From a virus (taxonomy: Duplodnaviria; Heunggongvirae; Uroviricota; Caudoviricetes): DNA of 15,746 nucleotides. Location: IMG/VR virus record IMGVR_UViG_2681813321_000028. One strand, 5' to 3'. The translations under genes and the position numbers were made by a program. The notes below the pieces were generated by a model. It ran no database searches. It saw only the letters and a list, made by a program, of their open reading frames with translations, and was not told where the DNA came from. This document shows, piece after piece, positions 857 to 15,746 of this stretch (the stretch's first letter is position 1; each line of letters opens with the position of its first letter).

Positions 857-886
857 GCCAAAACAGAGAGAGCATTACTGTCTCTG
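857..886 (-). terminator. Putative intrinsic terminator of the PerC-like gene
   Basis: Inverted repeat CAGAGA(864-869)/TCTCTG(881-886) overlapping the stop codon (875-877), followed on the minus strand by a short T-run (plus-strand AAAA 860-863). Confidence 0.3.
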
Positions 887-1162
887 GCAATCTTTATCGC
901 GATAACGCCTGAAGTACCCTCTCGCTTCCTCATCCATACCAAGAGCCGAATGAGTCCGCTTAACTGCCTGTCTTAAATCTCCGAATCTGTCTGTAGTTGC
1001 TGGTGGGCGTGCCGCCTTACGGATACATTCAGAGCGTCTGTTTGCTGCATGTTCACGTTCTTTATCGCCATCTGCCAGCATCATGACTTCTGCCCATCGT
1101 GCGGCAGCTCTCCGGTATAGCCCTTTTGACTCCAGTTCTTCAGCTTTCCTGTCCCTTATCAT
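875..1162 (-). CDS. PerC-family-like small transcriptional regulator (95 aa)
   Basis: ORF with RBS GAGG 5 nt before the ATG and a perfect TATAAT -10 (minus strand, plus coordinates 1176-1181). N-terminal motif EELESKGLYRRAAARWAEVM matches my recollection of the PerC/Pch family signature; not verified by search. Confidence 0.5.
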   Translation of the reverse strand: MIRDRKAEELESKGLYRRAAARWAEVMMLADGDKEREHAANRRSECIRKAARPPATTDRFGDLRQAVKRTHSALGMDEEARGYFRRYRDKDCQRQ

Positions 1163-3069: not shown

Positions 3070-5175
3070 TTATTGAGATTCTTTTTGTGATGCCTGTGCG
3101 ACTCTGGTGAGCGATTGTGTGACCGTACTGATCGCTCTGTCATATGCTGTGCTACCTTTTGGCGTATTTGCCAGACGTAACAAGGCATTTCGTATAACAG
3201 GGCTTTCGTATGCCTTCGCTGCTCCGCCTACGGCACCAGCAGCAGGAACAACAAACGCAGCCGTTTTTAGCATCCCCGCTAATACTGCTGCGTTTATGAT
3301 GCCACCACCAACTAACAATCCATAAAGCTGCTGACCATTTAAGTTTTGAACGTTCGCTTTTGCCGCGTGTCTTGTATCGTTGAGGTATTTAATAACGCCG
3401 TCCAGTTCCTTTCCATGTACGCCTTTAAAGAAAGTTGCTGATTGCTTCCTGTTCCGGTGTAACGCATTAATAAACTTCTCAACACTGATATTTCCAGACG
3501 GATCAGTCGCCTTATCTACAGCATTCTGAACTATGGCTGCTCGTGCGTTTTGCCTACCATTGTCATCCAGAAGCCTGTAAAGCTGAGAACGTTCTGATGG
3601 GCTTTGGCTAAAAACGAGTTTTGTTACATCCTCAGGCGTGGCCTTGCCGCTGGCTATTGCCTTTTGAACGCGCGTTCTTCCCATCATGTCATTGAATTTA
3701 GACCATGAGCGATCAACCCTTGCCATATTAATGGCTTCGTCTGCTCCAAGATTTTTGGCTACGGCTTTTTTCATATCCGCCGTATATGCCTTGTAGATAA
3801 TATCGCTGGCTTTCTGGAGCGTATCTTTATCAACAGTGTCAGATGACGCCATAAATCGCTTTCGAAGATCGGTTCTGTTTTCCCTCGCCAGACGCAGGTC
3901 ATTTGGTCCGCTGGTGATATCGTCTTTAAATTGCTGCAAGACTTTTACCGCGGCTCTATCCTGAGATTTGCCCGGGCGGCTTAACACGGCAATCTGATTG
4001 TCGATAGCTTTTACCGTGTTTGAGAGATCGACAGGGGTATCCCCCATAGCGTCAATTATGCGGTTATATCGCTTTCCTGCTGCCTCAATGAATTTTTGTT
4101 GCCCTTTAGTCGCAGATTCATAAAGCTGTTTATCAGAAATGCCACCCAGACCATCGCTAAATGTTCTGACTAAATTTTCTCGTGCTTGTTGTTGATTCAG
4201 CCGATTCTTACCGGTTCCAAAAAAAGGAACTCTTTCGCCTAATGTCTGAGCCTGACTCTGCATAAAGGTTTTATCTTTCAGCATGTCACTGGTCATTAAC
4301 GGCAGATTTCTTTCCGATGCAAAGTCGACAGCAGCCTTTGCTTCAGGCGACATATCACCACGAACAGCCCTCGAAACCGCACTCGCTGTATTTTCCAGCC
4401 CCTTACCAATACCACCAATGCCAGCAGAAATTACCGTTTGTAACGGATCAATATCTTCTCCACCAGCAAGGCTGGTGGCTCCCTGTAGTGCTAAATCTGT
4501 AGCTGCTGATTTTCCTATGGCACTAAGCACCGTTCCAGCCCTGCCCGCTGGTGTAAACGCCAACGCATTAGCAAGAAACGAGGTCAGGTCTTGCGGTGAT
4601 AAACCCGGCTTGTTCAGGGCATAATCACCTGATGGCAGAGAAACGATAGTATTCCCCTTCTCATCCTGCCTTAATGTCGCCCCCATTCCCTGAAGAATCT
4701 TTTCCTGAGACGCGTCAGAGCCGAAAAGTTGAGACCATCCAGCCTTTAGGGCATCCATGCTTAGTGAGTTCAATTCTGGGGCAGAGGCGACATTTTGCAG
4801 TCTCTCCATCTCTGGAGTCATTCGGCTTTCGCCTGTTATAGCATCGCGCATCGCAGCCCCAAGACTGGCTCCCTGTTCTGCTGAACGCTCAAGCCCCTCT
4901 CTTTGCTGAGTAGCTAACTTTGCATACCCTGACGCAAGAGAATTATCAGATGATGTATGTTGAATATTTTGAGTTGCTGATTGGGATCGGTCTATTTCAT
5001 TCGTTGATGGTAGTGGATAGGCAGCATAAAAAGCCTGCTTAGCCTGCTCTACACTTTCTCCGGCTTGCGGGGCCACGACTTCATTGAAGTATTGCTCCTG
5101 AGCCTGCGCTTTTTGTTCTGGTGCTAACGCCTGATACTGTGGAGAGGCGATAACATCTTTCCATGCTTTAGCCAT
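3070..5175 (-). CDS. Hypothetical 701-aa protein, Ala/Gln/Ser-rich, with C-terminal Gly/Ala-rich hydrophobic hairpin (predicted membrane insertion)
   Basis: Long uninterrupted ORF; TAATG stop/start overlap with the upstream gene at 5173-5177; C-terminal segment LYGLLVGGGIINAAVLAGMLKTAAFVVPAAGAVGGAAKAY; no catalytic motif recognised by eye. Confidence 0.8.
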   Translation of the reverse strand: MAKAWKDVIASPQYQALAPEQKAQAQEQYFNEVVAPQAGESVEQAKQAFYAAYPLPSTNEIDRSQSATQNIQHTSSDNSLASGYAKLATQQREGLERSAEQGASLGAAMRDAITGESRMTPEMERLQNVASAPELNSLSMDALKAGWSQLFGSDASQEKILQGMGATLRQDEKGNTIVSLPSGDYALNKPGLSPQDLTSFLANALAFTPAGRAGTVLSAIGKSAATDLALQGATSLAGGEDIDPLQTVISAGIGGIGKGLENTASAVSRAVRGDMSPEAKAAVDFASERNLPLMTSDMLKDKTFMQSQAQTLGERVPFFGTGKNRLNQQQARENLVRTFSDGLGGISDKQLYESATKGQQKFIEAAGKRYNRIIDAMGDTPVDLSNTVKAIDNQIAVLSRPGKSQDRAAVKVLQQFKDDITSGPNDLRLARENRTDLRKRFMASSDTVDKDTLQKASDIIYKAYTADMKKAVAKNLGADEAINMARVDRSWSKFNDMMGRTRVQKAIASGKATPEDVTKLVFSQSPSERSQLYRLLDDNGRQNARAAIVQNAVDKATDPSGNISVEKFINALHRNRKQSATFFKGVHGKELDGVIKYLNDTRHAAKANVQNLNGQQLYGLLVGGGIINAAVLAGMLKTAAFVVPAAGAVGGAAKAYESPVIRNALLRLANTPKGSTAYDRAISTVTQSLTRVAQASQKESQ

Positions 5176-6653
5176 TAATCACCCCATAGTGAAGAAAAGT
5201 TACTGCTGGCTGCTGGCTGTGATACCTGCTCAGATTGCGGCAATGTCTGCGACGAAGAAGCAGTTCCTCTGTCAACTGCTGAAATAACCCGCAAAGCATC
5301 ATAAGTTCGACCAGAAGCAGCTTTCAGCGAATTGAACTGGTTTTCCATCTTCCGGCGCTTGGTATCAATGGTTTTTGTGGAATCACCAGGCTGAGGGAAA
5401 TACATTTGATAATATTTGGACATTTCAGCTGGTAGGATAGATGCCCCTGTTTCCTGACGGAGTATTGCCATTATTGCGTCATTAGCATTAACAACGTATT
5501 GCTGCTCTGCTGGGCTGAGCGTTAAGTTAGCCAGCGTCCCATTACCCAAAGCATTATTAATGATCGCCACTCGCTGTGGGCTAAGCTGGTCTTTCAGTGT
5601 ATCTATTGAATCAAGAGCATCCCTAACCCTGTATGCAAATCCAGCAGCTTTTTTAGCCCCTTCTGGCGACTTTTCCATGATCTTTTGGGCTGTTGGCAAA
5701 GCTATTGGACGAAACCCATCTCCAGATATTGGCTGGTTTAGTTTTCCCTGCTCTTCACTTCCGTCTGTGTAGTATTTTGTGACAGTGCCATCATCGTTTT
5801 CTCTAACACTCATTAATTTTTTGGCGTTTATATTAATTCCAGCCGCTGCCGCAAATGCCGCCGCCCCCTCTGGATCCGCCTTTAACATTTGAGCGTACTG
5901 ATTGTAATTCTGCATTGCTGCTGTTGGTGCATATGCTGACGTTAACGCATTTGCTCGGCTAATATCCTGCCCTCTCGCCTGAAGTGCTTCGCCAGCCTGA
6001 TTGCTGCGGATTGTCTCTGCCAACTTGCCACGCTCAATATCCCGACCTTCCATTTGATCTTTGATATCGAAATACTTCTCATGACCGAGAGAAAACAGCG
6101 CCAGATTACCTGCGAAATGCTGGAAGCCCTGCGGGTCATTAACCTGCATTTCAGCAATAGTTTCTGGAGGGATACCTAAACGACGCATCTCCTGCTCATT
6201 ATCCATCATGAACCTGCCAAATGCGCCCTGACCAAGCGATGAGGCTACCTGTGCTTTGAGCGCCAGATTGCCATAATCATCCCTTTGAGCATCATCGACA
6301 TAACTCATCCCTTTACGGACTTCCTCAAACTCTTCTGGGAATGCTGTAATAAGATTACGCATCTGCTCCCTGTCACCGGACGCATAAGCATCTGCATAAG
6401 CTTTCTGGAATGCCGCTTTACGCTCCTGCTGTTGCTGCTGCTTATAAATATCAGCAACGCCAGCCAGACCACGAAGACCTGTCAGAGCAACGTTATTTGC
6501 ACCTGAGCGAGCCAGTTCATTGTTTTCGCGGATCAGACCAAGCGTTGCGTTAATGTCGCTTGCCTTTGGCGCATTCTCATTTTGCGTACCGATGCCAGCC
6601 AGAAAACCACCAGAATTAATACCCTGTTGCCACGTAGCCATTGATTTACCCAC
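5175..6653 (-). CDS. Hypothetical 492-aa protein, low-complexity (poly-Q, Ala-rich), translationally coupled to the 701-aa gene
   Basis: ORF from GTG 6653 (or ATG 6641) to TAA 5175-5177; overlaps the upstream 57-aa ORF stop; contains QQQQQ and Gly-rich N-terminus GINSGGFLAGIG. Confidence 0.8.
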   Translation of the reverse strand: MGKSMATWQQGINSGGFLAGIGTQNENAPKASDINATLGLIRENNELARSGANNVALTGLRGLAGVADIYKQQQQQERKAAFQKAYADAYASGDREQMRNLITAFPEEFEEVRKGMSYVDDAQRDDYGNLALKAQVASSLGQGAFGRFMMDNEQEMRRLGIPPETIAEMQVNDPQGFQHFAGNLALFSLGHEKYFDIKDQMEGRDIERGKLAETIRSNQAGEALQARGQDISRANALTSAYAPTAAMQNYNQYAQMLKADPEGAAAFAAAAGININAKKLMSVRENDDGTVTKYYTDGSEEQGKLNQPISGDGFRPIALPTAQKIMEKSPEGAKKAAGFAYRVRDALDSIDTLKDQLSPQRVAIINNALGNGTLANLTLSPAEQQYVVNANDAIMAILRQETGASILPAEMSKYYQMYFPQPGDSTKTIDTKRRKMENQFNSLKAASGRTYDALRVISAVDRGTASSSQTLPQSEQVSQPAASSNFSSLWGD

Positions 6654-6999: not shown

Positions 7000-7461
7000 T
7001 TATGGAGTCGCATTACTCTTCATGGCGTGAGCTTTCCTGTTCTCTCTTTGTTCCTGGTTCCATGGATAAGTGTAATTGCCACCAGCAAAGACCATATTGA
7101 TTTTGTGAGGAACCATTAAAGCGATATCAGCACTCATGTCACTGAATGAAACACAGTGCAGACGTTCAAGCCATTTGTATGCTGCTGCCGCTTCTCCCCA
7201 CAAATTAATCCCTGCAAGTTCAACAATATCTCTGATGGAGCAGATATCAACCATCCCGTTAACGCCTGTAAAACGGCGTTTAAAGTCGCCAAGATACTTT
7301 CTGAAAAGAGTTGCTTTCATTGGTTCAGAAAGGTCTATGTATGGGAACACAACCACATCAAGCAGCATCTCCCTTCTGTTGTTCATCGGTATTACAGATG
7401 GCAAATCGGATACTTTGCCAAATACATGATGAAAAGCCTTTGCGATTATCTTCATCATCAA
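7000..7461 (-). CDS. Hypothetical protein (about 151-153 aa), monocistronic
   Basis: ORF with RBS GGGAGA upstream of tandem ATGs (7458 or 7455 the likely start; the track starts at TTG 7461); followed by its own terminator; no family recognised. Confidence 0.55.
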   Translation of the reverse strand: MMMKIIAKAFHHVFGKVSDLPSVIPMNNRREMLLDVVVFPYIDLSEPMKATLFRKYLGDFKRRFTGVNGMVDICSIRDIVELAGINLWGEAAAAYKWLERLHCVSFSDMSADIALMVPHKINMVFAGGNYTYPWNQEQRENRKAHAMKSNATP

Positions 7462-7554
7462 TCTCCCACTGAAACCAGTGATGTGGTGTTCAGATTTCGT
7501 AAAACACTCTCTAATGCCAGCCAGATGTTGTGCTCATCAATTCAGTCACGTTGT

Positions 7555-7672
7555 GTTGGTTCAAAATGCCGTGTTGTTGGTTCAGTGTTGGTTCAATAAA
7601 AAGAATAAAATCCTTATAAAACAATACTCTTTACAAATTGAACCAACTGAACCAACTGAACCAACACCTTTT
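7555..7672. repeat. Iteron cluster 2 (ori/crr-like), mirror image of cluster 1, immediately downstream of the primase gene
   Basis: GTTGGTTCA at 7555-7563, 7576-7584, 7587-7595; AT-rich spacer; tandem TGAACCAAC at 7639-7647, 7648-7656, 7657-7665; 7628-7672 is the exact reverse complement of 1192-1236. Confidence 0.75.
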
Positions 7673-7690
7673 CTACGCACATGAAGAAGC

Positions 7691-10447
7691 TCATTCTTCA
7701 GATGAGTTGTAATCTCCTGGCTGGTAATTGAGTACATAAACGTTTATTTGTCGTCCCTGAATACGTGGTGATTTTCTTTGGTATCCACGACCGCTGTTTG
7801 GTGGGGTTAGCATCCCGGCTTTTTTCAACACTTCAGCAAACTGTTTTGCGTTGAAACCACATGCGATCTCCTTTTCAAATGTGGCCGGGAATGTGTAGAA
7901 AATCATTGGGCTTTCGTCATGTTCTCCACGCTGACGGTATCCGGCTAAATCTTTGATGGGCAAATCTGCCGGGCTGTATGGAAATGGTGCAAAACGGCTA
8001 AGCCCATAGGCATTAAGAAATGCCTCCGTTTGTTCAATAATCTGCTGATGCTCTTTGTTACCTGTGCCGAACTCGCGCAACCATGCGTTATAGCTGTGCT
8101 GTATCGCATCACGGCATGTCTGAGCATCCCAGCCTGTTACAACCTCGCCTAACAACAATGCGGCCTCCAGAATGGCAAATCGCGCGGCTACACGGTGAAC
8201 CTGCTCACCATAATCGGATGGGATCAGGCTTCTCCATCTGCTTTCGCAGTCACGAACAGTTTTAATAGCCTGTTGCTGGTGGTCTGCCAGCCATTTAATC
8301 CACTCACGCCCGGACGCGCCGTGGTGATGCTGGTAAGCGTCTTTCAGTGCGTCTGCGTGCTGTTTTCCGTTCTGGTAATCGTGAAAGCGTACTGCTTTAC
8401 TCAACGGAATATTCAGCAGTCGCACCATTTGCCCGGCTTTGGTTTTTCGCCCGGAAGTAGCGATAAATGTTTCTAAATCCATTTCTCCGGTGCTGATTGC
8501 CACTGTACGCCAGCGTTTTAGATCCCGGTTTCCACCATCTTTAGCGCCTTGCAGTTTCCCTACACCGTTAAATAACGCATAGGCAGACTGTGAAACACTG
8601 ACAGGATCAGCGCCCTGACCAACTTCATCAAGCGGCATTAGTCCGTCATTGTGGGCGGCAGCTTCATTTGCCAGCCCCAGCGCGGTTCCGTACCACGTCA
8701 GCCGCAGTAAATCAGGGTTGCCGTATAAGCTGCTCGCCACGTTTGCCGTGGTGGTCTTACCTGCGCTCGACTGCTCATAGAAATGAATGCCGAACCCGTC
8801 AGCGCCCACCAGCCCAATCAATGGCGCTGCCAGTGCTGCGCCGATCCCGGTCATCATTGAATAGTTACCAAAGGCCAGACGCGCCACGTTATCACGCCAG
8901 CTTTTCGCGCTCCCTGAGACGGTATATCCGGCTGCGGCTGAGCTTCTCCCGCTGAACAGCACAGGATTTTCAGGTGTTCCGATGATTTCCCCATCAGGCA
9001 TGATGTACGCTCCGCATTGCCAGCCAGTGGCATGAGCAACACGCCACAATTCACGAGAGCCACTGCGTTGTAGCCAGTCTGCCAGTATTGCTCTGAGGCT
9101 GCTTTTGGTCGTGACATTTACCCCACCAGCTTTAAGTGTGCGCCATCCTTCACGTTCACCAATATCAGCCAGTGGAATGGCAGCGGTTGTCGGCGTTTCA
9201 GAACCAAACGACAGCCAGCGAAGAATGAGATACTGGTCTTTATCGTCTCTGCCAGTACCGATAACGCTTAACGGAGAACATAACCAGCTTTCGTTATTGA
9301 TGATTTCTCCACTCTGGCTGTCAGCTCTCGGAGATACCCAATAAATACCATCCTCGCGGCTTTCTATTCTTGGTTTCAGTGGGTCGGTATCCATAACCTT
9401 AAAATCGCTTCCCTCAATGGTCTGTGGCTCCTGTTTCACGCCATTACCCTGTGGTTGGTACATTGACTTATTGAACGCTTCTGTGGCGCATTTAATGCCG
9501 TGTTTTTGGTGGTAATCATTCCAGTCTGCTTTGTGATCTGTCGGGGGTAATGCCACCCATCCAGAAACAGATAAAGCTGCCTTTTCTGCTGCTATTCTCC
9601 CCGTGTTTTGTCTTCCTTCGCTGTGGTCGTTATCCGCAGCAATGATGATTTGTGCTGAAGGAAATTTATCCCGCAGTACCTGGGCGACATATAACAGGTT
9701 CCCGGCATCAATCGCCGCCACTGTCAGCGCCTCTGGACGAATTAAATGGGCAGATAATGCCGTTGCCAGCCCTTCTGCGATTAAGATGCTCTGTGTTGTT
9801 TCTGGTGCGTTTATGGCGTGATATGCCCCCCGCTTTGCTGAACCTGTCAGGAGTCTTTTTTCACCATGTGAGGTAATAGTCTGTGCTGCTGTTACTGCGC
9901 CGGATTTATCCACCAGCGCCAGCAACAGAGATCCATCGGGCAACACGGGGAATGTAAAATCACCTACCCCTTTCGCAACCAGATAATCAGATTTGCCGTT
10001 TACAGCCTTTCTGCGCATGTCATCAAACTGACGGGAAAACGTATCCCGTCTTTGTTGTTCGTCCTTCTCTGCCCTTTTCAGGCGCTCCTGTTCGCGTCGC
10101 TGGCGCTCGGTTTCCAGTTGTTCCCGTTTCTGGCTGGTGGCTTCTGGTGTTTCCGTTGTCCGGTAATCAATACCCAGAACATCAGCGGCAAGAAGCGCCG
10201 CCTCTGTTGTGTCGCAGTTATTTACGCGTTTAATTAAATCCAGCCCATCACCAGCGCCGCACTGATTACAGATGAAGCTACCGCGCCCGTTGTCATCGAA
10301 CCGGAATCGATCTTTGCCCCCACATGCAGGGCAGGGAGCATGACGGCGCGGAGAGTCAGGGACATTTATGTTCAGGCAGCCCAGCACATGAGGCCAGTTG
10401 TTTTCAGACGCACTGATAACCTGACGGATAAGATCAATGTTTCGCAT
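7691..10447 (-). CDS. Primase-helicase of the P4 alpha type (zinc ribbon + TOPRIM primase + P-loop NTPase), 918 aa
   Basis: N-terminal CPACGG...CNQCG zinc-ribbon motif; TOPRIM-like IAEGLATA ... IIAADNDH; P-loop-like SSAGKTT; RBS GGGGG upstream of ATG 10447; iterons directly downstream. Confidence 0.9.
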   Translation of the reverse strand: MRNIDLIRQVISASENNWPHVLGCLNINVPDSPRRHAPCPACGGKDRFRFDDNGRGSFICNQCGAGDGLDLIKRVNNCDTTEAALLAADVLGIDYRTTETPEATSQKREQLETERQRREQERLKRAEKDEQQRRDTFSRQFDDMRRKAVNGKSDYLVAKGVGDFTFPVLPDGSLLLALVDKSGAVTAAQTITSHGEKRLLTGSAKRGAYHAINAPETTQSILIAEGLATALSAHLIRPEALTVAAIDAGNLLYVAQVLRDKFPSAQIIIAADNDHSEGRQNTGRIAAEKAALSVSGWVALPPTDHKADWNDYHQKHGIKCATEAFNKSMYQPQGNGVKQEPQTIEGSDFKVMDTDPLKPRIESREDGIYWVSPRADSQSGEIINNESWLCSPLSVIGTGRDDKDQYLILRWLSFGSETPTTAAIPLADIGEREGWRTLKAGGVNVTTKSSLRAILADWLQRSGSRELWRVAHATGWQCGAYIMPDGEIIGTPENPVLFSGRSSAAAGYTVSGSAKSWRDNVARLAFGNYSMMTGIGAALAAPLIGLVGADGFGIHFYEQSSAGKTTTANVASSLYGNPDLLRLTWYGTALGLANEAAAHNDGLMPLDEVGQGADPVSVSQSAYALFNGVGKLQGAKDGGNRDLKRWRTVAISTGEMDLETFIATSGRKTKAGQMVRLLNIPLSKAVRFHDYQNGKQHADALKDAYQHHHGASGREWIKWLADHQQQAIKTVRDCESRWRSLIPSDYGEQVHRVAARFAILEAALLLGEVVTGWDAQTCRDAIQHSYNAWLREFGTGNKEHQQIIEQTEAFLNAYGLSRFAPFPYSPADLPIKDLAGYRQRGEHDESPMIFYTFPATFEKEIACGFNAKQFAEVLKKAGMLTPPNSGRGYQRKSPRIQGRQINVYVLNYQPGDYNSSEE

Positions 10448-10459
10448 TCTGGCCCCCGT

Positions 10460-11063
10460 TTAGTGCGTCACTGGTGCTTCTGGGATGCCGTTTTCGTTTA
10501 GTTCGGCAATAAAGCTGTTGTGAAGATCGGCAAGCACTTCTCGCCCAAACGAAGTGAGTGTTCCCTGTTCGACATCGAACATGTTGCTGTAAAAAATGAT
10601 GGCATTCTTTGTTCCGACATCAACACCATATTTCTCGATCATTGCGCCCTCAATGTTGTTTGCCATAGCGAGGCGCTCTGCTACTGGATACAGCGGCATG
10701 GCGACGATGCCATTGGAATAAACAGAAACCACGGAATGATTGCCACTGTCATCAATAATGCTGACGGTGCCGTTTCCCTTTCTCATTTCATTGATGAATG
10801 CTGTTGCTATCAGCCAGCGCCACATAATCACGTGATGCTGTGATGTGTAATCGAAATATCCCTGGTTGCCGCCACTGGCAATAGCGAGATGTATAAACAT
10901 GCCTTCATCTGGTTTATCGTCATAATCCCCGGCATCCAGACGATTTACGGCATCAATATATGAGACGGTCTCAACGCGTTCTGTCATGCCATCGTTGCTG
11001 CGGTGCATGATGTTTACGCCGTCAGGCGTTGCTTCTGCATGGAAGGTTAAGAAATTATTCATG
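10460..11063 (-). CDS. Hypothetical protein (201 aa) immediately upstream of the primase gene
   Basis: Start ATG 11063-11061 (MNNFLTF) with ATGAATAA-type overlap onto the upstream gene stop; the ORF-track N-terminal extension to 11167 would overlap the upstream gene by about 110 nt. Confidence 0.55.
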
Positions 11064-11276
11064 TTTCGCCTCGCCTGAATGATTCTGTAACTCATATTTG
11101 CCCAACAATTCGTCTGCTTCCTGAATAGCTTCTGGTACGCCATTGAGCAGTGACATAACCGCGCCAATCATTAACTTGTCTCTGTTGCTGGGGCTGGCCC
11201 CTTCAAGCCAGAACCCTAAAACAGTCTGAACCTGTTCGATGCGACATTGCGCTTCAATGAGCTGGATGTTGGTCAT
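11055..11276 (-). CDS. Hypothetical small protein (73 aa)
   Basis: ATGA start/stop overlap with the upstream gene at 11273-11276; part of the coupled operon. Confidence 0.5.
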   Translation of the reverse strand: MTNIQLIEAQCRIEQVQTVLGFWLEGASPSNRDKLMIGAVMSLLNGVPEAIQEADELLGKYELQNHSGEAKHE

Positions 11277-11536
11277 TTCGCACTCTCCACATCGATTAAA
11301 CTGATATCTATCAGGGAGGTAACTTTTTGTAGCCAGCTATTGATTACTGTCGCCTGTTCCCCTCCCACCGAGGGAATAATCTCATTCATCACATGAACCA
11401 GACCTGTGCGCGCTCTGGTAAGCCGTTCAGTCGCGCAATCTGCGGGAGTGAATGTGTCTGGATATGGCTCTTCGCGCCCCAGCAATGATTCAATTTCCAG
11501 CTCACACGGATGACGATAAATTAAGTTGATATTCAT
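11273..11536 (-). CDS. Hypothetical small protein (87 aa)
   Basis: RBS GGGGGTG; ATGA overlap with the upstream gene at 11533-11536. Confidence 0.5.
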   Translation of the reverse strand: MNINLIYRHPCELEIESLLGREEPYPDTFTPADCATERLTRARTGLVHVMNEIIPSVGGEQATVINSWLQKVTSLIDISLIDVESAK

Positions 11537-11727
11537 TTTTCACCCCCAAGAATTACCAGCTCGGCACGGGCATCGTTAACCAAAGATGAGCACGCTTTAA
11601 TCGCATCCACGACATCAGCAGCGTCCATTTCTTCAGCCGAAAGACTGACAGCAACCAGGACAGCCGCTGCTTGCTCGATTAATTGAAGTGCGGACGTAAG
11701 GCGAGGGGTATTAATTGAGTTATTCAT
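11533..11727 (-). CDS. Hypothetical small protein (64 aa from ATG 11727)
   Basis: ATGAATAA overlap with the upstream gene (11720-11727); GGGGG upstream; the ORF track's longer version starts at 11784. Confidence 0.45.
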   Translation of the reverse strand: MNNSINTPRLTSALQLIEQAAAVLVAVSLSAEEMDAADVVDAIKACSSLVNDARAELVILGGEK

Positions 11728-11938
11728 TGGTTGCCCCCGTTTTGCATGGCATTTGTCCACCTTCCAGCAGGAAATGAACGTCACGAACGGCGAGATCCAA
11801 TATCGCGAGTAACGCCTTCAGTTTTTCGTCTCGTGAGGGAGAGTTGCTCACCAGAATGTCATTAATCACTTCTGTCAGTGTGATGATCTGGCTTGTGCGT
11901 TCGAGGGGATCCATATGCACATCGTAGGTTTTAATCAT
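11720..11938 (-). CDS. Hypothetical small protein (72 aa)
   Basis: Strong RBS GGAGGTG 6 nt upstream of ATG 11938-11936; it is the 3' part of a 355-codon open frame that I treat as composite. Confidence 0.5.
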   Translation of the reverse strand: MIKTYDVHMDPLERTSQIITLTEVINDILVSNSPSRDEKLKALLAILDLAVRDVHFLLEGGQMPCKTGATNE

Positions 11939-12424
11939 GTGCCACCTCCATGCGGATACGACCAGCAAAAAAGCAGACGTGATCGCGCACCAGAGAACGG
12001 CGAGCATCGCGTTCAGACTCGGCAGCAATATGATGAATTTTGGCGGTAATTGTCGGGCAATCGCGGCGAACTGCGGCGATAATCCAGATAAATTGCGGTT
12101 TTTGGGTAGGGGTAGTAGCCAGCATGTGGCAGCCTCCATTCGATAGCATGTAACGCTACCACCGGAAACGCCAATTTCGCTGGTGGTAGCCCAGACAGGG
12201 TTGGCGTAACCGGCTCGAATGGATACCGGCGCTTCCGAAGAAGCCCCTGCCTGAGCCACCATTGATTGACAAAGGCGCTGGATTATACACCAACGCCCAA
12301 AAAATGGGTGAGTCAGACCTACGACATAAAAAAAGACGCTCGGCGCGTCATATGTCGCCATTCGATTTACCAGGACGCCAATCCCGGCACCCGTTTTATG
12401 AGGTGCCTTATAACCATAAACCGT

Positions 12425-12452
12425 GTTGCCGCATAACGGCAAGCTCTTTTTT
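12425..12452 (+). terminator. Terminator-like hairpin plus T-run on the plus strand inside the low-coding region
   Basis: Stem TTGCCG/CGGCAA with 5-nt loop (12425-12442) followed by TTTTTT (12447-12452); the strand is opposite to the surrounding operon, so function is uncertain. Confidence 0.25.
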
Positions 12453-12780
12453 ATGGACTCCGAAAACTCACTATTGGAAGAACCAGAAGCACAGTACATC
12501 GCGCTCATTTCGTTAACGTCACGCGCGTGGACGAAGGTTTTTGTGGAGTCACTACGCGAGCAGAGAAAGCCATCTACGACCAGAAATTCTCTGGCGCAGC
12601 CGCTGACCTTCTCAACGCTAACACCATCGACCGTAATTTCTGACATAGTTAAGGCATCCGCTCCTACCACCAGCAAATGATAAACTTTGCTTGTATCTGC
12701 TGTATTAATGCCTGACTTTGCTGTCATATTGCTGGATTTTGGCGACATACCAGCCAGTGAAAATGTCTTCTTCTGGGCGG

Positions 12781-12963
12781 TTAGCATTTGTTAACCTCCG
12801 CGAACTCCTTCATGAAACGTGCCAGCGGTTGTACGCATGGCGATTGATACCCGTCGCGATAAAACGTCACTCGGTTGTGAGACACGCTTTCGACAGTAAC
12901 GAGTGCTCCGTGGGCATCTTTGTAGCGTTTTTGAGGTTGTGGTGTTCCTGTCGGCTTAAACAT
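12781..12963 (-). CDS. Hypothetical small protein (60 aa from ATG 12963)
   Basis: Strong RBS GGAGGCGG 3 nt upstream of ATG 12963-12961; ATGTTTAA overlap with the antirepressor-like gene stop; stop overlaps a further downstream start at 12787 preceded by GGAGG. Confidence 0.4.
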   Translation of the reverse strand: MFKPTGTPQPQKRYKDAHGALVTVESVSHNRVTFYRDGYQSPCVQPLARFMKEFAEVNKC

Positions 12964-13789
12964 GGACCGCCTCCAGACGCTTAGCGAGCCAGCGTTGCGA
13001 CAGGCGGGTGAGTTCTCCTTTGCGCTGCTCATATTCCATGCCCATATCAATTAACGTGATATTGGTGCTTTCGAGATATGAGAGGTGCTCAAGCTGTTCT
13101 GCGTTCATATGGTCGCGAGGTTCGCCAGAATAGCCATTTATCCGCGCCCACTGCTTAGCAGTTAGCCCACCAAGAACGATACGAGAAATCATATTGCTCT
13201 CGTTTGTGTAGTGGTGTTGCTGCGTCGTTTTCCCCATCTCAGCACGGGCCATATTCAGCGCATCGCACATTGGCTTAAAGTTGTTTGCGGCACTGATACG
13301 GGCTTTTAGCTGGCGACGATAGCGGGCGGCGATTTCAGGCACGCTACGCTGTAATTCTTCCTCGCACTGGATGAAATAACGGCGGATAGCGCGCCCCTGA
13401 TCATTGCGTTCGATCATTGCCAGTTCTTTCGCCATTCCGACACTTAACAGATAGTCTTTGCCGGGTCTTCCAGACTGCTTAATCTTGCTGTAAGCCGCGC
13501 CATTCGGGATTTTCCCCAAATTTGGGGAAATAGTTTTATGGACTGAGTAATCGTGCCCAATGGTGAAGTCATATTCAGAGATGCGATCAGTGATCCATGT
13601 AGAGAAGTCTTTTCCCACGCCCAACGCTTTGTGTAACGCTTTTGCGCTAACAATATTGGTTTCACGCCCACCGATATGACCAGGAATAACCGGGACAATT
13701 GCGGCAAATTCATTACCGTTAATTGTGCCCAGAGAGGCGTTCAGATGAGGGGCAGCCTCAGAAATTAATCTGCTTTTTTCGATGTTCAT
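12956..13789 (-). CDS. Phage antirepressor-like regulatory protein (AntA/KilA-C-type), 277 aa
   Basis: RBS GGAG 7 nt upstream of ATG 13789; motifs ETNIVSAKALHKALGVGKDFSTWITDRISEYDF and YLLSVGMAKELAMIERNDQGRAIRRYFIQCEEEL resemble phage antirepressor families from memory. Confidence 0.55.
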   Translation of the reverse strand: MNIEKSRLISEAAPHLNASLGTINGNEFAAIVPVIPGHIGGRETNIVSAKALHKALGVGKDFSTWITDRISEYDFTIGHDYSVHKTISPNLGKIPNGAAYSKIKQSGRPGKDYLLSVGMAKELAMIERNDQGRAIRRYFIQCEEELQRSVPEIAARYRRQLKARISAANNFKPMCDALNMARAEMGKTTQQHHYTNESNMISRIVLGGLTAKQWARINGYSGEPRDHMNAEQLEHLSYLESTNITLIDMGMEYEQRKGELTRLSQRWLAKRLEAVHV

Positions 13790-13871
13790 TTTCAGTCTCC
13801 GTTAGGCGGCGTTAAACGGTAACCGGCTCATTTAAACCGTCTGGTCTGTTTCCTCCGGCTCTACAAAAATA

Positions 13872-14549
13872 ATGTCCATCATTTTTAATGGACACTATCG
13901 TATGAAACACCGGACCTGGATCACTGAAGCTTTACGTCTTCACTTTGAAGAACATTTACCCCGGGTTGTGGCCGGGCGTCGCCTGGGTGTACCAAAATCA
14001 ACAGTTTGTAGTATGTTCGTGCGCTTTCGGAGAGCTGGCCTTTCGTGGCCTTTGCCCGCAGGCATGTCGGAGCAGGAACTTGATGCCTGCCTTTACGGAC
14101 AATTTTCCACGGTACCAGTCGTACGTCCTGAAAGCACCGTTATATCCGAAGCCCCCGTGGTAAAAAAACGTCCCCGGCGGCCCAACTTCCCTTATGAGTT
14201 TAAAATCGCCTTAGTGGAGCAGTCACTGCAGCCCGGAGCCTGTGTGGCGCAGATCGCCCGGGAAAACGGAATCAACGATAACCTGCTCTTCAACTGGCGC
14301 CATCAATACCGGAAAGGTGGCCTGCTGCCTTCCGGAAAAAATATGCCGGCACTGCTTCCCGTGACGTTAACGCCGGAGCCGGATAATAAAATCCCGGCCC
14401 CCGCACAGGAACCAGAGCAGATAAATACACCGTCCGACAGTCTGTGTTGTGAGCTGGTTCTGCCGGCCGGAACTCTCAGGCTTAAAGGTAAACTGACGCC
14501 GGCGTTATTACAGACACTTATCCGCGAAATAAAAGGGAGCAGCCACTGA
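13872..14549 (+). CDS. tnpA: IS66-family accessory protein TnpA (orfA) with an approximately 95-aa N-terminal HTH-like extension
   Basis: C-terminal two-thirds (KKRPRRPNFPYEFKIALVEQSLQPGACVAQIARENGINDNLLFNWRHQYRKGG) matches IS66 orfA as I recall it; the N-terminal part (WITEALRLHFEEHLPRVVAGRRLGVPKSTV...) looks like an HTH from a transposase N-terminus; true start uncertain (ATG 13872 or 13902). Confidence 0.65.
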   Translation: MSIIFNGHYRMKHRTWITEALRLHFEEHLPRVVAGRRLGVPKSTVCSMFVRFRRAGLSWPLPAGMSEQELDACLYGQFSTVPVVRPESTVISEAPVVKKRPRRPNFPYEFKIALVEQSLQPGACVAQIARENGINDNLLFNWRHQYRKGGLLPSGKNMPALLPVTLTPEPDNKIPAPAQEPEQINTPSDSLCCELVLPAGTLRLKGKLTPALLQTLIREIKGSSH

Positions 14550-14896
14550 TGATATCTCTCCCTGCAGGTTCGCGTATCTGGCTGGTTGCAGGTATCACCG
14601 ATATGCGAAATGGCTTTAACGGCCTGGCATCAAAAGTTCAGAACGTCCTGAAGGATGACCCGTTCTCCGGACACCTGTTCATCTTCCGCGGACGCCGGGG
14701 TGACCAGATAAAAGTGTTGTGGGCTGACAGTGACGGACTGTGCCTCTTCACCAAACGCCTGGAGCGGGGCCGCTTCGTCTGGCCAGTCACCCGTGACGGC
14801 AAGGTGCACCTTACTCCGGCTCAGTTATCCATGCTTCTTGAAGGTATCAACTGGAAGCACCCGAAACGAACGGAACGCGCTGGAATCCGCATATAA
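14549..14896 (+). CDS. tnpB: IS66-family TnpB (orf2), 115 aa
   Basis: MISLPAGSRIWLVAGITDMRNGFNGLA...HLFIFRGRRGDQIKVLWAD is the hallmark IS66 TnpB sequence. Confidence 0.9.
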   Translation: MISLPAGSRIWLVAGITDMRNGFNGLASKVQNVLKDDPFSGHLFIFRGRRGDQIKVLWADSDGLCLFTKRLERGRFVWPVTRDGKVHLTPAQLSMLLEGINWKHPKRTERAGIRI

Positions 14897-14915
14897 CCCG
14901 TTGTAAAGTGAGGAT

Positions 14916-15746
14916 ATGGACACCTCACTTGCTCATGAGAACGCCCGCCTGCGGGCACTGTTGCAGACGCAACAGGACACCATCCGCCAGATGGCTGAAT
15001 ACAACCGCCTGCTCTCACAGCGGGTGGCGGCTTATGCTTCCGAAATCAACCGGCTGAAGGCGCTGGTTGCGAAACTGCAACGTATGCAGTTCGGTAAAAG
15101 CTCAGAAAAACTTCGTGCAAAAACCGAACGGCAGATACAGGAAGCACAGGAGCGAATCAGCGCACTTCAGGAAGAAATGGCGGAAACGCTGGGTGAGCAA
15201 TATGACCCGGTACTGCCATCCGCCCTGCGCCAGTCTTCAGCCCGTAAACCGTTACCGGCCTCACTTCCCCGTGAAACCCGGGTTATCCGGCCGGAAGAGG
15301 AATGCTGTCCTGCCTGTGGTGGTGAACTCAGTTCTCTGGGATGTGATGTGTCAGAGCAACTGGAGCTTATCAGCAGCGCCTTTAAGGTTATCGAAACACA
15401 ACGTCCGAAACAGGCCTGTTGCCGGTGCGACCATATCGTGCAGGCACCAGTACCTTCAAAACCCATTGCACGCAGTTATGCCGGAGCGGGGCTTCTGGCC
15501 CATGTTGTCACCGGGAAATATGCAGACCATCTGCCGTTATACCGCCAGTCAGAAATATACCGTCGTCAGGGAGTGGAGCTGAGCCGTGCCACACTGGGGC
15601 GCTGGACAGGTGCTGTTGCTGAACTGCTGGAGCCGCTGTATGACGTCCTGCGCCAGTATGTGCTGATGCCCGGTAAAGTCCATGCTGATGATATCCCCGT
15701 CCCGGTCCAGGAGCCGGGCAGCGGTAAAACCCGGACAGCCCGGCTG
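14916..15746 (+). CDS. tnpC: IS66-family transposase TnpC, N-terminal 277 codons (3' truncated by window end); not in the supplied ORF track
   Basis: ATG 14916 preceded by GTGAGGA; frame open to 15746; leucine-zipper-like N-terminus and CCPACGG...C...CCRCDH zinc-finger motif typical of IS66 transposases. Confidence 0.9.
   Translation, partial: MDTSLAHENARLRALLQTQQDTIRQMAEYNRLLSQRVAAYASEINRLKALVAKLQRMQFGKSSEKLRAKTERQIQEAQERISALQEEMAETLGEQYDPVLPSALRQSSARKPLPASLPRETRVIRPEEECCPACGGELSSLGCDVSEQLELISSAFKVIETQRPKQACCRCDHIVQAPVPSKPIARSYAGAGLLAHVVTGKYADHLPLYRQSEIYRRQGVELSRATLGRWTGAVAELLEPLYDVLRQYVLMPGKVHADDIPVPVQEPGSGKTRTARL

Follow-up and report, generated by a model that had tools for sequence, protein, structure and literature searches.

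What a poorly coding stretch is doing inside a tightly coupled operon is the question raised by positions 11,939 to 12,780 of the Caudoviricetes record IMGVR_UViG_2681813321_000028 in IMG/VR, which we analyzed over its whole length of 15,746 nucleotides (nt) and call the window. In this part of the window, every gene is read from the minus strand. An earlier note, made from the letters alone, had described them as coupled from 13789 down to 10447, upstream of the primase gene (10447-7691), and stop/start overlaps do link them from 13789 to 10460, for example ATGTTTAA at 12963, ATGCTAA at 12787, ATGATTAA at 11938, and ATGAATAA at 11727. The note had proposed that the stretch is either an RNA-based immunity or attenuation region analogous to that of satellite phage P4 or a frameshifted gene. 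The comparisons reported here indicate, with a probability of roughly 0.8, that it is the immunity and early-control region of a phage-inducible chromosomal island (PICI) of the EcCIMP1 family and that its homologues are the PLE-seqA-cI-seqC-kil/eta region of P4 and, in phage P1, the c4-icd region.

The P4-like nature of the region was borne out by two RNA genes. The covariance-model search for P4 CI-type RNAs that the earlier note had suggested placed a C4/CI antisense RNA at 12266-12179 of the minus strand (12179..12266; Rfam RF01695; score, 79.5 bits; gathering threshold, 45), with the match covering model positions 1 to 87 of 87. The isrK/seqA-like leader RNA lies before it on the same strand, at 12406-12329 (12329..12406; Rfam RF01394; score, 67.1 bits; gathering threshold, 50). 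P4 gives the same two hits in the same order, and isrK followed by C4, both above their gathering scores, was found in 21 further scanned loci (14 from other Enterobacterales, three further Escherichia coli islands, and four true phages). The isrK and C4 RNAs have been equated with the seqA and CI RNA of P4 (PMC3632133), and both models also match enterobacterial PICIs (PMC10111431).

We built covariation alignments from 17 distinct loci, phage P4 included, with 500 shuffles as the control for each structure. C4 folds into a 17-bp closing stem ending in ACCACCA plus two hairpins, with a minimum free energy of -47.2 kcal/mol (z = -5.8); its 27 pairs were formed in 100% of 459 cells, 11 of them with compensatory changes, and no shuffle did as well (0/500). 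The layout of isrK is two hairpins, a linker, and an intrinsic terminator, with 93.8% of cells paired, 8 compensatory pairs, and again 0/500 shuffles as good. Its first stem is the GGCACC/GGTGCC hairpin near 12390-12412 that had already been noticed, and its 3' end is the terminator at 12349-12329 on the minus strand (GACGC..GCGTC followed by seven U).

Directly before isrK, we predict an immunity promoter equivalent to P4 PLE (12407..12442, minus strand) from positional alignment with the P4 hexamers. It consists of a -35 box, TTGCCG (12442-12437), an 18-nt spacer, and a -10 box, TATGGT (12418-12413), with the start at G 12406 and an A-tract upstream. The boxes align in position with TTGCCT and TATAGT of P4 and with the boxes of the other aligned loci, and there were zero variable promoter sites among 14 islands. 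A simple consensus promoter scanner did not call the promoter at 12442-12413. A terminator-like hairpin with a T-run had been pointed out at 12425-12452; the hairpin is at that location, but it is not the terminator of the region, which is the one at 12349-12329. On the plus strand, it overlaps the minus-strand -35 box, the stem-loops of homologues differ and are out of register, and its folding energy is unremarkable (z = -1.8). It might still have a role in halting antisense transcription.

The sequences that C4 would recognize lie on both sides of it. C4 carries an element b' (UCCAUUCGA, 12223-12215) in the loop of its hairpin 2 and an element a' (ACGCCAA, 12207-12201) in its junction, all on the minus strand like their targets. 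The first target pair is in isrK: the hairpin 2 loop holds a1 (ATTGGCGT, 12382-12375), and the linker holds b1 (TCGAATGG, 12365-12358). The second is in the leader between C4 and the next gene (12126..12178), with a2 (ATTGGCGT, 12175-12168) after C4 and b2 (UCGAAUGGA, 12143-12135) overlapping the Shine-Dalgarno sequence GGAGG (12137-12133) of that gene. The same arrangement is known from P1 (a', b'/a1, b1/a2, b2) and P4 (seqB/seqA/seqC). Across the aligned loci, b'-b2 and a'-a2 were 97.8% paired, 13 of the 16 pairs were compensatory, and none of the 500 shuffles was as good; the antisense-target covariation score was 0.597 versus 0.125 in shuffles. C4 matched its own leader perfectly over 9.4 nt on average, versus 4.7 nt for noncognate combinations, and the loci hold about a dozen cognate specificities. 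The Rfam model RF03163 (c4-a1b1) scored 17.9 bits at 12419-12367, below its gathering score of 46.7, and was not assigned, though the a1/b1 sites are present; four related loci passed its threshold.

The gene whose Shine-Dalgarno sequence is overlapped by b2 is an icd/kil-like gene of 64 codons (11931..12125, minus strand), which matches the NCBIfam profile of Icd-like inhibitors of cell division (NF033153, 71.7 bits against a threshold of 25). It has its own GGAGG, is the first gene after C4 to have its own ribosome-binding site, and is annotated in some genomes by the Prokaryotic Genome Annotation Pipeline (PGAP), so the 355-codon open reading frame (ORF) that spans the region is not the sole open frame there, as had been thought. 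Its protein shows 43% identity to the part of the P4 eta frame that we take to be kil, the C-terminal 65 codons. In the P4 sequence, the stop codon of orf88 is overlapped by three ATGs of a frame whose final 65 codons are Icd-like; the P4 eta and kil facts reportedly go back to work by Forti in 1999. The icd-like gene is out of frame with the 355-codon ORF. The two are also out of frame in the related loci L007, L019, L021, and L012-14 and in frame in P4, L005, L006, L008-11, L022, and L037-40, and both arrangements thus recur among relatives. A 1-nt difference from L022 directly before the icd ATG shifts the icd frame, and as a result the ORF continues through icd into the following 72-codon gene. 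That gene (11720..11938, minus strand) starts from an internal GGAGG and an ATG at 11938, as had been recognized; its start overlaps the icd stop (ATGATTAA), and it forms the in-frame end of the long ORF. It had no match in Pfam, NCBIfam, or PHROG, and its variable sites are distributed 2/4/7 over the codon positions.

Between isrK and C4 is a 62-nt spacer (12267..12328, minus strand) with a partly conserved hairpin, 12296-12290/12281-12275, in which 6 of the 7 pairs show compensatory changes and some are broken; the loop holds TATAAT. The spacer measures 21 to 107 nt in other relatives, and the hairpin at 12275-12296 is missing from those with spacers of 21 to 24 nt. We considered TATAAT (12287-12282) as a promoter of C4's own and judged it unlikely: it has no usable -35 box or extended -10, was not called by the scanner, and sits in the loop of a partly covarying hairpin, and the 21- to 24-nt spacers of relatives are too short for it. 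A 45-codon ORF starting with TTG (12293-12156) was also rejected; it has no Shine-Dalgarno sequence and lies in the icd frame. On the other side of C4, the 9-bp hairpin reported earlier, 12155-12163/12182-12190, is present, conserved, and covarying (96.7% of cells paired, 5 compensatory pairs, 0/500 shuffles as good). In it, the 3' strand of the C4 closing stem pairs with the downstream GGUGGUAGC (12163-12155), and it would therefore be an alternative to the C4 fold in the unprocessed transcript, with a2 in its loop.

Four true lambdoid phages, L037-L040 (SfV, 118970_sal3, PhiR47_1, and an Stx2a phage), have isrK-C4 within a long ORF that is annotated as Rha, antirepressor, or regulator protein and lies in the early right operon. 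The module is downstream of a gene for Cro or for a helix-turn-helix (HTH) regulator, and in three of these phages the replication genes follow it immediately. All four have the Icd-like part in frame, and two have it fused to a longer C-terminal domain.

The 355-codon ORF itself (11720..12787, minus strand; in the ORF list, matched by Pfam, and called "ash family protein" by PGAP) starts at ATG 12787, 9 nt after a GGAGG and overlapping the stop of the DUF4222 gene, which agrees with the coupled start seen earlier; its 3' end overlaps the start of the next gene. It traverses the promoter, isrK, and C4, crosses the icd-like gene in another frame, and shares the frame of the 72-codon gene. Its central translation had been described as Cys/Trp/Pro-rich and unlike a protein. 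These three residues together make up 4.9% of residues 1 to 123, 10.3% of residues 124 to 220, 19.0% of residues 221 to 283, and 5.6% of residues 284 to 355, and residues 221 to 283 are the icd-like gene read in another frame, which is the source of the odd composition. Pfam PF10554 (Phage_ASH) matches residues 124 to 232 (105.3 bits against a threshold of 26; E = 3e-30), and these map to 12418-12092 on the minus strand, that is, to isrK, C4, and the icd leader. Since the domain coincides with these RNA elements, the Phage_ASH family is the translation of RNA genes, and the match reflects conservation at the RNA level. The PGAP annotation of the locus is inconsistent: it gives a protein of 355 residues, a pseudogene fragment together with Icd, or, in L022, a 290-residue "Icd-like" fusion.

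The frame of this ORF is kept open widely. It is intact in 12/12 full-length islands of the same lineage and also in EcCIMP1, and the ORF is therefore not a pseudogene; the region is present in >400 E. coli genomes. In 21/23 loci, a long ORF spans the RNA gene, with a start that lies before the immunity promoter and is coupled to the gene ahead of it; the conserved C4 AUG (12262) is in the frame of the long ORF, likewise in 21/23 loci. From the start of isrK to the end of C4, the frame of that AUG is free of stops in 15 of 16 distinct loci, compared with 0/16 and 3/16 for the other two frames. In every annotated relative, the RNA-spanning ORF overlaps both the preceding and the following gene. 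The open frame, rather than the amino acid sequence, seems to be under selection; the feature common to the relatives is translation through the RNA region and no particular protein product, and the 355-codon ORF corresponds to P4 eta.

Comparison of near-identical islands delimited an immunity-specificity cassette running from a1 to b2 (12138..12382, minus strand), with boundaries that were read by eye from the aligned sequences. The cassette is ~40% different between islands that are otherwise nearly identical, and its flanks are 0 to 4% different from those of L019, L020, and L007. The spacer, C4, and the leader differ by 38 to 41% and isrK differs by 17.9%, its differences starting at the a1 loop. 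The two alleles with a 62-nt spacer align without indels, and every RNA pair is maintained. Three immunity alleles were seen, the third (L021) having a spacer 38 nt shorter. From these alignments, the alleles appear to be heteroimmune variants that arose by swapping of the entire specificity unit. The swapped cassette shows no synonymous-site bias (C4 substitutions fall 13/10/13 on the codon positions).

This comparison also addresses a point on which the earlier note had staked its proposal. It had called for an alignment of homologues that sets compensatory changes in the stems against codon-position conservation, and it had named a conserved intact protein with a synonymous pattern of variation as the outcome that would speak against regulation by RNA. 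The stems covary and the substitutions are spread evenly over the codon positions; the open ORF is conserved, though without the synonymous bias of a protein, and the RNA proposal stands. A conserved open ORF does not count against it, because P4 eta is likewise kept open through RNA genes (PMC10111431).

If the 355-codon ORF were instead an ordinary gene for a functional Ash-family regulator, the RNA matches would be incidental. The strong Phage_ASH match, the conserved and intact ORF, and a lean toward the third codon position among the variable sites of the first 49 codons (5/3/11 in islands of this lineage) agree with a protein. However, the Ash domain is the very part that coincides with isrK, C4, and the leader, the alleles differ by 38 to 41% there (18% in isrK) evenly over the codon positions while keeping all RNA pairs, residues 221 to 283 are icd out of frame, and part of the N-terminal region is antisense to a fragment of a terminase gene described below; we consider an Ash regulator very unlikely. 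The region could also be a decaying or frameshifted pseudogene remnant with no current role. The frameshift proposed earlier does exist to the extent that icd is out of frame relative to P4, L005, L022, and many other relatives, with the 1-nt difference before its ATG, and PGAP marks some copies as incomplete "ash family protein." Against decay, none of the 12 full-length copies, which cover three immunity alleles and at least two alleles of the terminase fragment, has a broken frame, the promoter is invariant, the RNA folds and target sites are fully maintained, and more than 400 E. coli genomes carry the region. A remnant is thus highly improbable, and what had been suspected as a broken gene is an intact ORF.

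A mechanism of the kind described for Salmonella Gifsy-1 is a more serious competitor. An inactive a1-a' structure would be opened and translation would run from the C4 AUG at 12262 onward to the downstream genes, which would make the module an on-switch instead of an immunity repressor. The RNAs are homologous, the mechanism has been shown for isrK-orf45-anrP in Salmonella, the C4 AUG is conserved in the frame of the long ORF, and isrK holds sites complementary to C4. On the other hand, there is no Shine-Dalgarno sequence before AUG 12262, the covariation of b2 with C4 and its position right at the icd ribosome-binding site fit repression, and the element is a P4-like satellite with downstream genes resembling those of P4. 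We regard activation of this type as unlikely to be the explanation, but it is not mutually exclusive with P4-type repression and stays a live alternative or addition to it.

Taking P4-type repression as the preferred reading, we inferred the steps of the mechanism by homology to P4, P1, and Gifsy-1 and from the covariation. Transcription from the promoter at 12442-12413 would start at 12406, most transcripts would end at the isrK terminator, and readthrough would carry C4. C4, with its tRNA-like stem ending in CCA, would presumably be excised from the transcript like P4 CI and P1 C4, which are excised by RNase P. The exposed a' and b' would then pair with a1/b1 in the isrK leader and with a2/b2 downstream of C4, and pairing with b2 would block translation of the icd/kil-like gene because b2 overlaps its Shine-Dalgarno sequence. 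As in P4, premature termination before the replication genes would follow, and the island would be quiet and immune to elements of the same specificity. With the upstream operon on, ribosomes would pass by translational coupling from AntA to DUF4222 to the 355-codon ORF and through isrK, C4, and the leader; this translation would break up the RNA structures and keep transcription from terminating, which is the role described for P4 eta. In P4, eta begins ahead of the constitutive promoter, is coupled to the gene before it, and includes kil as its C-terminal part; when eta is translated from the late promoter, immunity-dependent termination is prevented (PMC10111431).

Several observations weigh against this reading. 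The icd-like gene is out of frame with the long ORF, unlike in P4, and the nested kil-in-eta arrangement is not reproduced. We looked for a Rho-dependent terminator in the sequence and located none. In Gifsy-1, the same module works by IsrK activation and not by repression through the C4 homologue (PMC4825925). In addition, an IS66-family element lies directly upstream of the AntA gene. As homology to EcCIMP1 stops at 13818 and IS66-family genes replace the alpA/integrase side, the upstream activating promoter may be disconnected in this copy, and the island copy may be immobile.

Against the P4 immunity region (PLE, seqA, cI RNA, seqC, and the nested kil/eta), the window has the same order of promoter, isrK/seqA, C4/CI, targets on both sides, and an Icd/Kil-like first gene. 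In both, the long ORF begins ahead of the promoter, continues across the RNA genes, and is coupled to the gene before it, and the primase operon lies downstream. In contrast to P4, the long ORF has 355 codons here versus about 199, the spacer has 62 nt versus 107 nt, a phage packaging (pac) fragment is present, and the preceding genes are AntA and DUF4222 rather than orf88. The recognition sequences of the window and P4 differ, and the two would therefore be heteroimmune. The immI region of P1 and P7 (c4, a1/b1, a2/b2, icd, and ant) has in common with the window a C4-family RNA with two elements, each with one upstream and one downstream site, and a downstream target pair that covers the ribosome-binding site of an icd-type gene; the P1 details come in part from the Rfam family names and in part from general background. 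It differs in that the antirepressor gene is downstream of the module there and upstream here, where the upstream targets are in an isrK-type terminated leader. Gifsy-1 isrK-orf45-anrP also has a homologous isrK followed by a C4-like RNA (STnc1160) and an ORF, coupled to the gene that follows, whose translation begins with an AUG in the 5' end of the C4 region. There, however, the ORF has 45 codons and the antirepressor is downstream, whereas here the frame is open from far upstream of isrK. Translation of orf45 has been shown (PMC4825925), and by its published coordinates, orf45 would be the frame of the long ORF from AUG 12262.

Within the N-terminal part of the 355-codon ORF, on the opposite strand, nucleotide comparison revealed 117 bp (12524..12640, plus strand) that are copied from the pac region of gene 3, a small-terminase gene of the P22 type. 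The fragment is 87.8% identical to P22 gene 3 over 107 bp and begins at the annotated pac site. Comparison with the annotated 22-bp site gave the 22-mer at the pac position, GAAGGTTTTTGTGGAGTCACTA (12533-12554, plus strand), which matches P22 at 16/22 bases and, in a by-eye reading, fits 16/17 positions of the published P22 pseudo-pac pattern (PMC10996546). The fragment is 95.3% identical over 107 bp to three gp3-like genes in IMG/VR, in which the 22-mer matches at 22/22 positions; the exact 22-mer occurs in 11 IMG/VR contigs, 8 of them satellites and 3 with the 22-mer at the pac position of a full-length gp3-like gene. In P22, the initiation cuts fall within a 120-bp region around pac (PMC10996546), about the size of the 117-bp fragment. 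The fragments of other island alleles have the same boundaries and are closest to other phages (IME10 type at 90.7 to 91.6%, or P22 type), and the variation is concentrated at third-codon positions of the terminase gene. Shared boundaries, different closest phages, and terminase third-codon variation together suggest repeated exchange with gene 3 of helper phages. For the 22-mer of the second allele, which begins GAATG, there was no phage carrier, all 5 IMG/VR matches being satellites. The equivalent N-terminal ORF segments of L022 and L005 had no match in the phage collection, and the pac insert is therefore specific to this island lineage.

The segment 12524-12640 is, on these comparisons, a candidate packaging site and probably acts as the signal for helpers with a gp3-type small terminase. 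That it is the working packaging site of EcCIMP1-type islands, allele matched to P22-like helpers with such a terminase, and that the ORF thus holds two independently swappable cassettes (pac and the RNA immunity unit from a1 to b2), we put at an even chance. It could instead be a passive recombination scar or a decoy that titrates the helper small terminase. The absence of the fragment from the equivalent ORFs of L005 and L022 is in keeping with a scar or decoy, as is the behavior of Kapi1, the experimentally shown helper of EcCIMP1, which still transfers at low frequency although its small terminase is unrelated and it has no match to the fragment. A scar or decoy would not account as readily for a fragment that begins at the pac 22-mer and spans 117 bp, compared with the 120-bp cut region of P22, for a 22-mer identical to that of some P22-like phages, for several alleles with common boundaries that are each nearest a different phage gene 3 and vary at third-codon positions, or for an island that has no terminase gene of its own yet carries P22-type ejection-protein genes. 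We hold this alternative to be possible but somewhat doubtful.

The cos-type PICIs (EcCICFT073 and 11capE) offer a parallel to a packaging role: they too are islands without a terminase of their own that have a short packaging sequence derived from a helper, which in 11capE is 258 bp, at 90% identity, in common with the helper at the cos position. They differ in that the sequence in the window is a pac site, which comes from within the small-terminase gene of a P22-type phage with headful packaging, and in that it is placed inside the immunity-region ORF and not downstream of the primase.

The island is a PICI of the E. coli EcCIMP1 family. The window is 98.9% identical to EcCIMP1 over 7497-10447 and 93.9% identical over 10462-13818 (~6.3 kb). 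The two share the gene order AntA, DUF4222, Ash, Icd, and primase, the 22-mer at the pac position, and the intact 355-codon ORF. EcCIMP1 differs in having another immunity allele (the L007/L019 type), a different late/ejection-gene module, and an alpA and integrase side where the window copy has the IS66-family element. The EcCIMP1 paper describes a verified PICI without a terminase gene that is transferred by the P22-like phage Kapi1 at very low frequency, and its authors found the packaging mechanism difficult to characterize (PMC11773190). Term searches within that paper returned no mention of C4, antisense RNAs, or a pac or cos site (PMC11773190). The small terminase of Kapi1 is unrelated to gp3, and Kapi1 has no match to 12524-12640.

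Other features of the window lie outside the immunity region. IS66-family genes occupy 13819-15746, with an HTH transposase ORF at 13872-14549, TnpB_IS66 at 14549-14896, and a further ORF at 15067-15582; both EcCIMP1 and L001 have their alpA and integrase side in this place. Genes for P22-type DNA-ejection or DNA transfer proteins are at 5175-6653 and 3070-5175 (both minus strand), with profile matches to Pfam Inj_translocase (5.6e-84) and to phrog_770 (1e-162), the latter with a transglycosylase part. The product of 5175-6653 is 52.6% identical over 213 residues to a Kapi1 DNA transfer protein; ejection proteins of its own are unusual for a satellite. The sequence TTGGTTCA is present in 13 copies versus 0.8 expected by chance, at 1200-1318 and 7556-7664, with one further copy at 7320. 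The two clusters are inverted, with 55-nt arms that are 95% complementary, and flank the ejection-gene module, one just downstream of the primase gene and the other next to a PerC gene. From this arrangement, the copies are probably origin iterons, one set of which was duplicated. The PerC-family regulator gene is at 875-1162 (minus strand; Pfam, 2.6e-33), and the EcCIMP1 PerC homologue is a reported repressor of the LEE pathogenicity island.

As an RNA switch, the region adds little beyond another instance of P4/P1 antisense immunity; it is otherwise ordinary, and the pac copy is its only newly described feature. Genome annotation is misleading here: what is called an "ash family protein" domain is two RNA genes in translation, and annotations often omit the Icd-like gene. 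Different immunity cassettes, each with its antisense and target sequences matched, occur in nearly identical islands and provide a natural test set for RNA-based heteroimmunity among satellites. The pac copy is a concrete candidate for an answer to how EcCIMP1-type islands are packaged and what their helper range is, a question left open in the 2025 EcCIMP1 paper. If the pac reading is true, it would account for the very low transfer of EcCIMP1 by Kapi1, whose small terminase is unrelated, and would indicate which phages serve as efficient natural helpers.

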